Positions 3,001 through 4,873 of a DNA stretch of 4,873 nucleotides are shown in pieces. Every line of letters starts with the position of its first letter. Positions within the stretch are counted from its first letter, which is position 1. The stretch is from a virus (lineage: Duplodnaviria > Heunggongvirae > Uroviricota > Caudoviricetes): the IMG/VR virus record IMGVR_UViG_2634166457_000016, positions 1-4,873 of that record; one strand, given 5' to 3'. Made by a program: the position numbers.

Positions 3001-4873
3001 AGCAAGGGCCACCATCACATACCGCCATTAGCTCATCAGGAAAGAGCGCCAGCTTTCGAAGCTGGTTGCGCGGAGTTCGGGTCCCCGAAGGCGGTCCATT
3101 ATCTGTATCCTGCGTTGTTAGCTCAGCCGGACAGAGCAATTGCCTTCTAAGCAATCGGTCACTGGTTCGAATCCAGTACAACGCGCCACACTTATTTTCC
3201 CTGGCTCGCTTTTGCGGGCCTTTTTTTTAAATGTCTCACAATTCAGGCGGTTGACTGTTGTCTGGTTTGCGGGGAGTTTGTTAAAAGAAACTGGCATGGT
3301 GAATCCCCCTGTGCGGAGGGGCAATCAGCGAGTAGGTATATGGGATAATCGCGGATTCAGGTGCTGGTACTGAATTCACCGGGAGGCACCCGGCACCATG
3401 CAATGGCACATAGCGCCACTCTCCAGCCCCTCTCCGGAGGGGCTTTCTTATGGACAAAAAAAGCCCGCGCAGGGAGACGCGGGCGGCAAGGAATAAACAA
3501 CAAAACGTGAAGTAATATTTCAGCTGGCGAATAATATCCGACAGTAATCACTCTGCGCAATAGCGCGGCCTTTTTCGTATTGCGGGCTGTTGTCTCTCTT
3601 CTGCCATTGTCCTGTAACTTCCGGACTTCAGCCCGCTCCTCATTTTACTCACAATATTATCCCGGCCGGGAGGATTCATGGCATTTAAACACTATGATGT
3701 TGTCAGGGCGGCGTCGCCGTCAGACCTTGCGGAAAAGCTGACACACAAACTGAAAGAGGGCTGGCAGCCATACGGCGGACCGGTTGCCATTACGCCGTAC
3801 ACACTGATGCAGGCGGTGGCTATTGAAGGAGAGCCACAGGTCGGCCCTTCATCTGAGCCGGATTGGTACTACGTCATCGTACTGGCCGGGCAGTCCAATG
3901 CCATGGCTTACGGTGAAGGGCTTCCGCTGCCGGATTCATACGATGCTCCGGATCCGCGCATTAAACAGCTGGCGCGCCGCAGTACAGTTACGCCGGGTGG
4001 GGCTGCCTGCAGATATAACGATATTATTCCGGCCGACCACTGCCTGCATGATGTGCAGGATATGAGTACGCTGAATCATCCGAAGGCAGACCTGAGCAAA
4101 GGGCAGTACGGCTGTGTCGGCCAGGGGTTACATATTGCCAAAAAACTGCTCCCGTATATCCCGAATAACGCGGGGATCCTGCTGGTACCATGCTGTCGTG
4201 GTGGTTCGGCATTTACCCAGGGCGCGGAGGGGACATTCAGTGCGGACACGGGGGCCAGCCAGGATTCGGCGCGCTGGGGTGTGGGTAAACCGTTATATCA
4301 GGACCTGATTGCGCGCACCAAAGCTGCATTACAGAAGAACCCGAAAAATGTGTTGCTGGCGGTGTGCTGGATGCAGGGAGAGTTTGACATGAGCGCCGCC
4401 ACCCACGCACAGCAACCTGCGCTGTTTACAGCCATGCTGACACAGTTTCGTGCTGACCTCTCCGTGTTTAACGCGCAGTGCCATGGTGGCAGTGCTGCAG
4501 ATGTGCCGTGGATTTGTGGTGACACGACGTATTACTGGAAAAATACCTACGGCACCCAGTACAACACCATTTACGGGGCGTACAAAAACAGGGAGAGTGA
4601 GGGCGTTTATTTTGTGCCCTTCATGACAGACGGTAACGGCGTCAATACCGCCACTAACGCGCCGGCAGAAGATCCGGATATTCCGGCATCAGGATATTAC
4701 GGTGCGGCATCGAGAACGAATGGAAACCAGGTATCATCAAACCGCCCGACACATTTCAGTTCATGGGCGCGCAGGAGCATTATTCCGGATCGTCTGGCAA
4801 CCGCTATTCTGAACGCAGCCGGGCGCACCTCAGCCTTCATCAGTGGTAAGGCACCGGAAATCAAACCCTCGCC

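Follow-up and report, generated by a model that had tools for sequence, protein, structure and literature searches.

A probably decaying allele of the phage tRNA gene argN in an ileZ-argN-argO cluster

Plunkett et al. 1999 (J Bacteriol 181:1767) reportedly named the genes of the ileZ-argN-argO tRNA cluster in phage 933W. In 933W and other Stx2 phages (argN in AP012536, AP012533, AM072972, and others), argN lies between ileZ and argO, downstream of Q. Polymorphism has been noted in the first tRNA-Arg of Stx2 phages (PMC2858043), and 'tRNA-pseudo' variants of the cluster have been noted as well (PMC13641118). Phage-borne tRNAs have been described that match the codons that phages over-use (PMC3636060) or that stand in for host tRNAs cleaved by defence nucleases (PMC11464382, PMC12445682, PMC10264068). 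SfI, Sf6, and P22-like phages encode tRNAs downstream of Q; these, along with the tRNA-Lys of T5 and a coliphage tRNA-Thr, are phage-borne like argN, but they have canonical bodies or targeted changes in the anticodon loop, and there is functional evidence for them; in contrast, the argN copy that we describe is known from its sequence and carries acceptor and T-arm substitutions that break pairs. Our literature search for argN expression or charging found none and returned only incidental mentions of the cluster.

We analysed a stretch of 4,873 nucleotides from a Caudoviricetes virus (positions 1 to 4,873 of IMG/VR record IMGVR_UViG_2634166457_000016), which we will call the window; all of the features discussed here are on its + strand. 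As in the Stx2 phages, argN is the middle gene of ileZ-argN-argO, a cluster typical of lambdoid and Stx-type prophages, and lies downstream of Q, on the late-gene strand. The late-gene antiterminator Q (814..1635; annotated as an antitermination protein; Pfam Antiterm, 166 bits) probably drives the read-through transcription that reaches the tRNA cluster when the phage grows lytically. The first tRNA gene, ileZ (2939..3014), has a CAT anticodon and is called as tRNA-'Met'(cat) by ARAGORN; it scores 72.5 bits with Rfam, is annotated as tRNA-Ile/ileZ in RefSeq and in phage records, and presumably reads AUA after lysidine modification. The third, argO (3112..3188), is a tRNA-Arg(UCU) whose cloverleaf is fully paired (ARAGORN, tct; Rfam, 70.1 bits). 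Just 7 nt separate ileZ from argN and 13 nt separate argN from argO. A promoter-like site (TTGATT-17-TATTAT, 2900..2928), recognised by its match to the consensus only, ends 10 nt 5' of ileZ, and it falls outside the block that is conserved among most phages, which starts at around 2936. Directly 3' of argO is a terminator-like hairpin followed by T8 (3203..3228); this is within the conserved tRNA module, whose homology to phage records reaches to about 3226-3240. An STnc100-like RNA and a nanS-p-like esterase are found 3' of the cluster, and the window contains no stx genes.

An intact cluster would supply readers of codons that E. coli core genes seldom use and phage genes use often, with ileZ reading AUA, argN reading CGA and CGG, and argO reading AGA and AGG. 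All three tRNAs would be cut from one precursor with short spacers, which would be made by late read-through and perhaps also from a local promoter. We compared codon usage (per 1000 codons) between prophage genes and host core genes and found 4.7 vs 2.4 for CGA, 12.4 vs 2.7 for CGG, 6.3 vs 0.8 for AGA, 4.5 vs 0.5 for AGG, and 8.6 vs 2.3 for AUA. Because prophage genes are rich in CGA and CGG (2-fold and 4.6-fold enriched over the host core, respectively), this usage fits a role for intact argN in the supply of rare-codon tRNAs.

The window's argN (3022..3098) is 77 nt long with the CCA encoded. Its anticodon, TCG (3056..3058; U34 C35 G36), can be read directly, and the only arginine anticodons known from E. 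coli K-12 are ACG, CCG, UCU, and CCU. A sequence-only reading of the window had proposed that this is a phage-supplied Arg-UCG tRNA, the argN of Stx-type phages, and ARAGORN, Rfam (RF00005), synteny, and homology all agree. The gene is therefore not new: annotation of argN goes back to the 933W genome, and hundreds of RefSeq genomes label this exact allele as tRNA-Arg. The window's argN and the 933W/Stx2 argN have in common their length of 77 nt, the UCG anticodon, the 5' strand of the acceptor stem, the D-arm, U73, and the encoded CCA.

The same reading had noticed three oddities in the body of this tRNA, and we find all three in the sequence. First, in the acceptor stem, A6 (3027) is opposite A67 (3089), where canonical alleles have U67. 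Second, in the T-stem, A52 (3074) is opposite C62 (3084), where canonical alleles have G52. Third, the T-loop (UUCGGGU) has G58 (3080), where the 933W-type allele and a Lys-type relative have A58, which normally pairs with U54 in the T-loop. Thus, the full 7/4/5/5 standard pairing fails at 6:67 (A:A) and at 52:62 (A:C), and 19 of the 21 stem pairs form. The conserved tertiary set (U8, A14, G18G19, U33, G53:C61, and U54U55C56) is otherwise complete, with position 58 as the sole exception. The anticodon loop is UUUCGAA, with U32 instead of the C32 of 933W-type alleles. The Rfam tRNA model matches 3022-3095 with 42.9 bits (E=7e-07) and marks the same two non-standard pairs. A corrected fold with canonical pairs, which had been raised as a way out, is given by neither ARAGORN nor the covariance model: the two agree on one register that includes both mismatches, so we rejected a register shift or another cloverleaf. 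We also rejected sequencing error, because 560 complete genomes and 16 IMG/VR loci carry the exact allele, as well as another RNA family, because a permissive Rfam scan of 2850-3750 found only tRNA at this locus, plus chance-level matches.

For recognition by E. coli arginyl-tRNA synthetase (ArgRS), the identity set of tRNA-Arg is A20, C35, G36 or U36, and A or G at 73, with the purine discriminator being a minor element. A20, C35, and G36 are all kept in the window's argN, with A20 lying within the D-loop sequence AUCAGGAAA. The discriminator is U73, rather than a purine, both here and in every aligned argN-type allele. Judging from this alignment, U73 is a trait of the argN family and not a defect of the window's copy.

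We compared the window's argN to about 120 related loci. Over the full 77 nt, it is 87-91% identical to the argN of VT2-Sakai, EDL933-Stx, Stx2a phages, Nil3, and phage 86. It differs from the argN of 933W at 8 positions (77-mer index 17, 21, 33, 45, 53, 59, 64, and 68), which include U67>A, G52>A, A58>G, and C32>U. As to whether the mismatches are conserved in the argN of Stx phages, 933W-type argN has perfect stems and A58. Because 6A:67U, 52G:62C, and A58 are present in 933W-type alleles, in L001-type alleles, and in a Lys-type relative with the same tRNA body, this comparison shows all three defects (U67>A, G52>A, and A58>G) to be derived. Alleles with a single defect also exist: A52 is found in phage Nil3, G58 in locus L037, and A67 in locus L062. 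Of 38 distinct alleles, 29 have A-U at the acceptor pair 6:68 (77-mer index) and 9 have this pair broken; at the T-stem pair 53:63, 29 have G-C, 1 has G-U, and 8 have a broken pair. Among alleles with the UCG anticodon, variation in the stems is one-sided or pair-breaking and never compensatory. Furthermore, other alleles with G58 (L006, L049, L086, and L087) are also altered at the universally conserved U54/U55.

When alleles are ranked by Rfam tRNA bit score, the window's argN (42.9) falls well below that of 933W (54.8) and below intact or single-defect argN in general (53-56); ileZ is at 72.5 and argO copies are at 65-71. However, it clears the gathering score of 29 bits and is listed in RefSeq as tRNA-Arg, which makes it no sub-threshold match of the kind that had been proposed as decisive. 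Such matches do occur among its relatives: L006 scores 26.4 bits, and L015 and L016 have no Rfam tRNA match. Nor is the window's argN a pseudogene in the sense of having lost an essential arm, as every arm is present and it is found by both ARAGORN and Rfam. The predicted energy of its cloverleaf is -20.0 kcal/mol, as compared to -28.3 to -31.3 kcal/mol for canonical and G58-only alleles; these predictions leave out tertiary contacts and modifications. In its minimum-energy fold (-29.0 kcal/mol), the T-arm is replaced by a UUCGG/CCGAA hairpin, to which G58 and A67 each contribute one more pair, and which stacks on the remaining 5 bp of the acceptor stem. In some cases, canonical alleles, such as that of 933W, also do not have the cloverleaf as their minimum-energy fold. 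The single-sequence fold z-score of argN is -1.37, and such z-scores are usually uninformative for tRNAs.

These results favour one of the options offered by the sequence-only reading, that of a decaying tRNA: the defects are derived, about 12 bits and 8-11 kcal/mol are lost, and (as described below) other copies of the gene form a decay series. We conclude that this feature is the known phage tRNA gene argN, here as a widespread derived allele that is probably impaired or decaying. The three defects most likely mark early decay, and the allele is most likely hypomorphic or non-functional, en route to becoming a pseudogene. By the predicted energies, U67>A, G52>A, and A58>G destabilise the acceptor stem and T-arm and tip the 3' end towards a misfolded hairpin. 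The expression and maturation of this argN, its charging by ArgRS, the codons it reads, and its actual loss of function are inferred. Retained function is a residual possibility, because the allele is above the gathering score and is annotated as tRNA-Arg.

Some functional tRNAs tolerate a single mismatch, or an A that faces C or another A. It is possible, although less likely, that the window's argN is a fully functional tRNA-Arg(UCG), with the mismatches and G58 being tolerated (possibly with the help of modifications), which is charged by ArgRS and reads CGA and CGG like canonical argN. Besides the Rfam score, the ARAGORN call, and the annotation, this would fit the intact A20, C35, G36, anticodon loop, and CCA end, the higher use of CGG and CGA in prophage genes, and the occurrence of identical copies in many genomes and in IMG/VR loci with varied upstream genes. 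Against this, all three changes are derived and destabilising and favour a competing fold, none of the UCG-anticodon alleles has a compensatory change, and in other G58 alleles U54/U55 or the anticodon arm has subsequently been lost. Also, the allele is missing from the genomes of isolated phages: it was absent from the 50,697 phage genomes that we searched, in which the best match was 90.9% identical.

Of 5426 complete E. coli genomes, 560 contain the exact 77-mer, which RefSeq annotates as a non-pseudo tRNA-Arg; these genomes represent several serotypes and differ in what lies upstream of the gene. The 16 IMG/VR loci with an identical argN likewise have varied upstream genes. This distribution could reflect retained function, or else clonal sampling and hitch-hiking with the downstream module. 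The exact allele (100% identical across the tRNA) is found in the yccA-adjacent defective prophage of O157:H7 (for example strain PV15-279, NZ_AP018488.1 1168463-1168539), and also in O145, O111, and other strains. In PV15-279, this prophage is interrupted by IS insertions, and its terminase, portal, and J genes are frameshifted, which also speaks against full function. The O157:H7 prophage shares with the window an AraC-family gene upstream and the STnc100/esterase module downstream. Beyond the AraC-family gene, the upstream regions differ: O157 has another type of Q and a CPBP protease gene, while the window has a 273-amino-acid Q. The two are therefore distinct mosaics of modules.

To see how argN fares as a whole, we consider 115 IMG/VR loci anchored on ileZ. 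The slot between ileZ and argO holds canonical argN at 36 of these loci, or about one third of the sampled copies. Another 17 loci have a window-type argN, with at least 2 broken stem pairs and G58; the slot shows G58 alone at 5 loci, a single mismatch at 5, scrambling or indels at 26, and no argN-like body at 15. (Extraction of the argN loci demanded an intact 5' acceptor strand, so the sample is biased.) The commonest form of the slot in E. coli is a scrambled 80-nt remnant, which is found exactly in 912 of 5426 genomes and in similar form in 1813 of 5426. This remnant and the forms with a deletion in the anticodon arm have the same slot, acceptor stem, G58-type T-arm (GGGTCCCCG), and CCA as the window's argN, but their anticodon arm is replaced or lost, whereas the window's is complete. 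The scrambled and deleted forms have no ARAGORN or Rfam tRNA match and are unannotated in RefSeq. In contrast, about 82 of 92 argO copies have no stem mismatch, one argO allele has a compensatory change in the T-stem, and the exact ileZ allele is present in 2776 of 3057 E. coli genomes with ileZ. Nucleotide diversity is 0.073 for argN, 0.039 for argO, and 0.021 for ileZ. By these comparisons, the argN slot as a whole is decaying while ileZ and argO stay intact. That argN is far less constrained than its neighbours suggests that selection maintains the supply of AUA and AGA/AGG readers, rather than CGA/CGG readers. Decay of the window's argN would be tolerated since, of the three genes, argN is under the least constraint, and since the cluster is often present several times in one host genome; roughly 7500 clusters exist across complete E. 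coli genomes, and O157:H7 PV15-279, for instance, has 9 copies of ileZ. Annotation pipelines label the weakened allele as a normal tRNA-Arg, and the even more common scrambled remnant is unannotated; therefore, counts of "extra rare-codon tRNAs" in EHEC overstate the capacity to read CGA and CGG.

The persistence of the remnant also bears on whether the argN RNA is past decoding and acts instead as a tRNA-shaped processing spacer (an RNase P or 3'-end signal that frees ileZ and argO) or as a tRNA-derived regulatory RNA. The remnant does retain the acceptor stem, D arm, a T-like hairpin, and CCA and folds into a cloverleaf-like shape, the spacers in the cluster are very short, and the alternative hairpin of the window's argN stacks on what remains of its acceptor stem. 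However, recent common descent explains the conservation of the remnant, and the extraction was biased towards intact 5' acceptor strands; deletion forms and loci with ileZ only exist; and we matched no non-tRNA Rfam family and identified no candidate target. We consider such a role to be highly improbable. The option of a tRNA-derived regulatory RNA, which had been put forward from the sequence, finds only the tRNA family among Rfam matches, and variation among alleles gives no convincing support for an alternative structure. At index 59:64 there is an apparent exchange of G-C and A-U, but it involves three haplotypes only, with 12 unpaired alleles, and is compatible with simple descent. As this 58/63 covariation fits simple descent, we did not adopt selection for the alternative 3' hairpin.

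In some loci, the slot switches its anticodon on one tRNA body, to UCU (L032) or to UUU with C33 and three compensatory changes in the stems (L004 and others), and the UUU form is followed by a Thr-UGU tRNA. Lys-UUU and Thr-UGU are targets of PARIS/PrrC and P2-OLD, Arg tRNAs are also cleaved by P2-OLD, and phage tRNAs rescue from tRNA cleavage by PARIS/PrrC and P2-OLD (PMC11464382; PMC12445682; PMC10264068). The slot might thus be an anti-defence cassette, with selection for variants that substitute for, or survive longer than, host tRNAs under attack by tRNA-targeting nucleases such as colicin D, P2-OLD, PARIS, or PrrC, and the unusual body or U32 would then make the window's tRNA resistant to nucleases or a decoy. 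But the window's changes are in the acceptor and T arms, away from the known cleavage sites in the anticodon stem-loop, and they break pairs rather than recode; also, the scrambling and deletion of UCG-type copies represent loss and not innovation. We know of no nuclease that is specific to Arg-UCG-like bodies, and we consider this explanation very improbable. A related idea is that the middle slot is a cassette that evolves rapidly in conflict with defence nucleases that cleave tRNAs, in which the acceptor and T-arm changes would be adaptive and yield a tRNA resistant to nucleases, a decoy, or an element used in processing; this too seems improbable. It leans on the switches among UCG, UCU, and UUU (with C33) and on the 3' hairpin being strengthened by two of the three substitutions. 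The Lys-UUU (C33) and following Thr-UGU relatives are better candidates for anti-defence tRNAs in temperate coliphages.

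The argN gene, tRNA-Arg(TCG), lies at 3022-3098 (+) between ileZ (2939-3014, +), whose CAT-anticodon tRNA is annotated as tRNA-Ile in RefSeq, and argO, tRNA-Arg(TCT) (3112-3188, +). ARAGORN identified all three genes, and the Rfam tRNA model gave them 42.9, 72.5, and 70.1 bits, respectively. Read directly by arm, argN is CCGCCAU-UA-GCUC-AUCAGGAAA-GAGC-G-CCAGC-UUUCGAA-GCUGG-UUGCG-CGGAG-UUCGGGU-CCCCG-AAGGCGG-U-CCA. It has a UCG anticodon (3056-3058), an acceptor mismatch A6:A67 (3027 and 3089), a T-stem mismatch A52:C62 (3074 and 3084), G58 (3080; all +), a U73 discriminator, and a CCA that is encoded in the gene. 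The covariance model flags two non-standard pairs. An earlier sequence-only reading, which reported an Arg-UCG tRNA with these mismatches and G58, thus described the gene accurately. No alternative register repairs the pairs, and sequencing error is excluded because 560 of 5,426 complete E. coli genomes contain the exact 77-mer. On balance, we favor the view that this is a weakened allele, probably hypomorphic or inactive, that is drifting to pseudogene status.

A 341-nt query around the cluster matched 289 phage records, mostly Stx2-converting phages, which name the three tRNA genes ileZ, argN, and argO. (In Stx phages, the argN gene, the cluster, and the rare-codon explanation for it are textbook knowledge, and RefSeq already annotates the exact allele; we modestly add that the argN slot decays in graded steps and that the defects of the window's allele are derived.) The whole cluster is 93-97% identical to the phage records, and argN is only 87-91% identical to the argN of any deposited phage genome. 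Using the 3' end of ileZ as an anchor, we pulled about 120 IMG/VR loci and aligned the downstream segment. The argN alleles of the 933W type (from an Stx2 phage) and of the L001 type (named for a compared locus) are fully canonical, with all 21 pairs, A58 in a UUCGAGU T-loop, and a CUUCGAA anticodon loop. A Lys-type relative on the same tRNA body, which served as a rough outgroup, also carries 6A:67U, 52G:62C, and A58. Because both canonical types and the outgroup share this state, the alignment indicates that the three anomalies in the window's copy are derived. Nor are the mismatches conserved across the argN genes of Stx phages, as the sequence-only reading had proposed to check: the 933W type is fully paired. 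Each anomaly is also found by itself in another allele: phage Nil3 has A52, loci L037 and L028 have G58, and L062 has A67. The combination of all three defines an allele group (16-17 of the sampled loci); in all 15 of the 15 cases that could be assessed, this group goes with the window's downstream module, and the upstream genes vary. Flawed argN genes are also present in inducible or isolated Stx phages: in phiSTEC1575-Stx2k (L128, 2623-2699) a 53G:61A mismatch breaks the conserved G53:C61 pair, and Nil3 (L129, 301-377) has the A52:C62 mismatch only.

With the Rfam model, the argN alleles of 933W and L001 score 54.8 and 56.0 bits, the G58-only allele of L037 scores 54.0 bits, the A67-only allele of L062 scores 53.0 bits, and argO copies score 65-71 bits. 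The L006 allele (26.4 bits) falls below the 29-bit threshold, and the scrambled (L015) and deleted (L016) forms have no match. Covariance scoring, another check proposed from the sequence, places the window's allele above this threshold. Its cloverleaf has a predicted energy of -20.0 kcal/mol, versus -28.3 to -31.3 kcal/mol for canonical and G58-only alleles (ViennaRNA). Its minimum-energy fold (-29.0 kcal/mol) has a shifted UUCGG/CCGAA hairpin in place of the T-arm; G58 and A67 are each predicted to add one new pair to this hairpin, and A52 to weaken the normal T-stem. Pairs counted over 38 distinct alleles gave no convincing covariation for the hairpin; the sole pair that seemed to covary involves just three haplotypes. 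We therefore treat the hairpin as a likely misfolding liability and not as a selected structure.

Alternatively, the window's argN could be a fully functional tRNA, which we consider plausible but less likely. It lies above detection thresholds, it keeps the anticodon arm, the identity elements, and the CCA, as well as G18G19, A20, U33, U54U55C56, and G53:C61, and the allele is widespread. Clonal over-sampling of EHEC lineages and linkage to the downstream module account for much of this spread. The main identity elements for ArgRS are A20, C35, and G36. Although U73 is unusual in E. coli tRNA-Arg, every aligned allele of the argN family has it, and it therefore does not count as a defect of the window's copy.

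The argN slot as a whole is decaying. Across 115 IMG/VR loci, the middle element is a canonical UCG tRNA (no mismatch and A58) in 36, window-type (at least two mismatches plus G58) in 17, G58-only in 5, and carries one mismatch in 5; it is scrambled or has indels in 26, has a UUU anticodon in 10 or UCU in 1, and lacks an argN-like body in 15. The universally conserved U54 and U55 are altered in other G58-carrying alleles. Stem variation among UCG-anticodon alleles is one-sided or pair-breaking, and compensatory changes in the argN body are confined to the Lys-type relative. The neighboring genes show another pattern: about 82 of 92 argO copies are free of stem mismatches, one argO allele has a compensatory double change in the T-stem, and the exact ileZ allele is present in 2,776 of 3,057 ileZ-carrying genomes. 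Nucleotide diversity is 0.073 for argN, 0.039 for argO, and 0.021 for ileZ (its unanchored part only). Among the 5,426 complete genomes, the exact 933W allele is found in 275 (versus 560 for the window's), and an 80-nt scrambled remnant, unannotated there, is found exactly in 912 and in similar form in 1,813. Independently, "tRNA-pseudo - tRNA-Arg" variants of the cluster were reported in 2026 from stx2i prophages (PMC13641118). The derived defects, the lower score, and the decay of the slot favor a decaying tRNA among the three options of the sequence-only reading, which also included unusual modification and a tRNA-derived regulatory RNA. A regulatory or processing-spacer role is a minor possibility that has no direct support from the window's allele.

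The 80-nt remnant (about 2723-2802 in L015, and in 25 other loci; for a genome example, NZ_CP025916.1 5793-5872) is the commonest form of the middle element in E. coli genomes. Unrelated sequence takes the place of its anticodon arm. The predicted fold still shows the acceptor stem and D arm, followed by a short hairpin and a T-like arm with CCA.

The known arginine anticodons of E. coli K-12 are only ACG (with inosine), CCG, UCU, and CCU, and a tRNA with U34 would decode CGA and CGG. We compared codon use (per 1,000 codons) in an Sp4-like prophage and in 49 kb of host core genes: 4.7 versus 2.4 for CGA, 12.4 versus 2.7 for CGG, 6.3 versus 0.8 for AGA, 4.5 versus 0.5 for AGG, and 8.6 versus 2.3 for AUA. 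All three tRNAs thus match phage-enriched codons, and classical codon supplementation fits as the role of an intact argN. The same argument has been made for other tRNAs downstream of Q (PMC3636060). Decay of argN is probably tolerated because, of the three functions, CGA/CGG supply would be needed least and because redundant clusters are present. Nine copies of ileZ lie on the chromosome of O157:H7 PV15-279 (NZ_AP018488.1), and at least one copy is present in 3,057 of the 5,426 genomes (7,527 places in all), so the prophage tRNA cluster is widespread and redundant. In PV15-279, the window-type argN is in a defective prophage adjoining yccA; this prophage contains IS elements, and its terminase, portal, and J genes are frameshifted.

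Some relatives have switched anticodons. A variant cluster, ileZ - "Lys"(UUU) - Thr(UGU) - Gly(UCC), is found in L004 (1501-1733), L005, L009, L046, L047, L063, and others. The argN body and the UUU tRNA of this cluster are homologous; the latter carries three compensatory double changes (7:66, 27:43, and 30:40), C33 in place of the universal U33, and an A:C mismatch at 51:63. PARIS/PrrC and P2-OLD cut host Lys-UUU and Thr-UGU tRNAs (PMC11464382, PMC12445682), and temperate coliphages may have an anti-defence tRNA module in the Lys-UUU(C33)/Thr-UGU cluster, which is a more interesting lead than the window's allele. For the argN slot, an anti-defence role is a minor alternative that draws on these relatives and on work on phage tRNAs and tRNA nucleases (PMC10264068, PMC11464382, PMC12445682), but the window's allele gives it no direct support. 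In L032 (2136-2209, -), one change in an argN body has turned the anticodon into UCU (loop CUUCUAA). The anticodon has thus shifted inside the slot, giving that prophage two Arg-UCU tRNAs.

The window is the late-regulatory region of a lambdoid prophage. It begins with a partial DUF968 gene and RusA, followed by the Q antiterminator (814-1635; Pfam Antiterm, 166 bits), a small ORF, an AraC-family HTH regulator gene (2197-2910, +; Pfam HTH_18 and HTH_AraC) that ends 29 nt before ileZ, the tRNAs, an STnc100-like RNA (3265-3455, +; Rfam STnc100, 138 bits), and a DUF1737/SASA esterase (a nanS-p-like ORF) that runs past the window end. The phage-conserved block (about 2936 to about 3230) comprises the three tRNAs and a terminator-like hairpin with a T8 run (3203-3228). 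Just upstream of the cluster in this mosaic is a promoter-like site (TTGATT-17-TATTAT, 2900-2928; a consensus match only), and another (2134-2161) accompanies the AraC-family gene. This gene, which presumably resembles the prophage-encoded Psr/PatE-type regulators of EHEC, also lies ahead of the cluster in a defective O157:H7 prophage and in the Stx2k phage. In phiSTEC1575-Stx2k, stx2AB comes after the same gene and tRNA cluster; stx genes are absent from the window. One paper mentions, for Stx2 phages, a "pS tRNA promoter" located upstream of the cluster as well as polymorphism in the first tRNA-Arg (PMC2858043).

The sequence directly 3' of Q (1640-1740, +) contains a terminator-like hairpin and T-run (1718-1733) and is a possible pR'/tR' leader, in which case mainly Q-modified polymerase would transcribe the tRNA cluster. 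The STnc100-like RNA has its own terminator hairpin (3425-3444) and sits between the argO terminator and the esterase ORF, exactly the place of stx2AB in phiSTEC1575-Stx2k. In related loci, an AgvB/AsxR-like sRNA lies antisense right after the STnc100-like RNA (L037 2840-2901, L016 3051-3110). The window has no match to an AgvB/AsxR-like sRNA, and it has a minus-strand terminator-like hairpin at 3484-3463.
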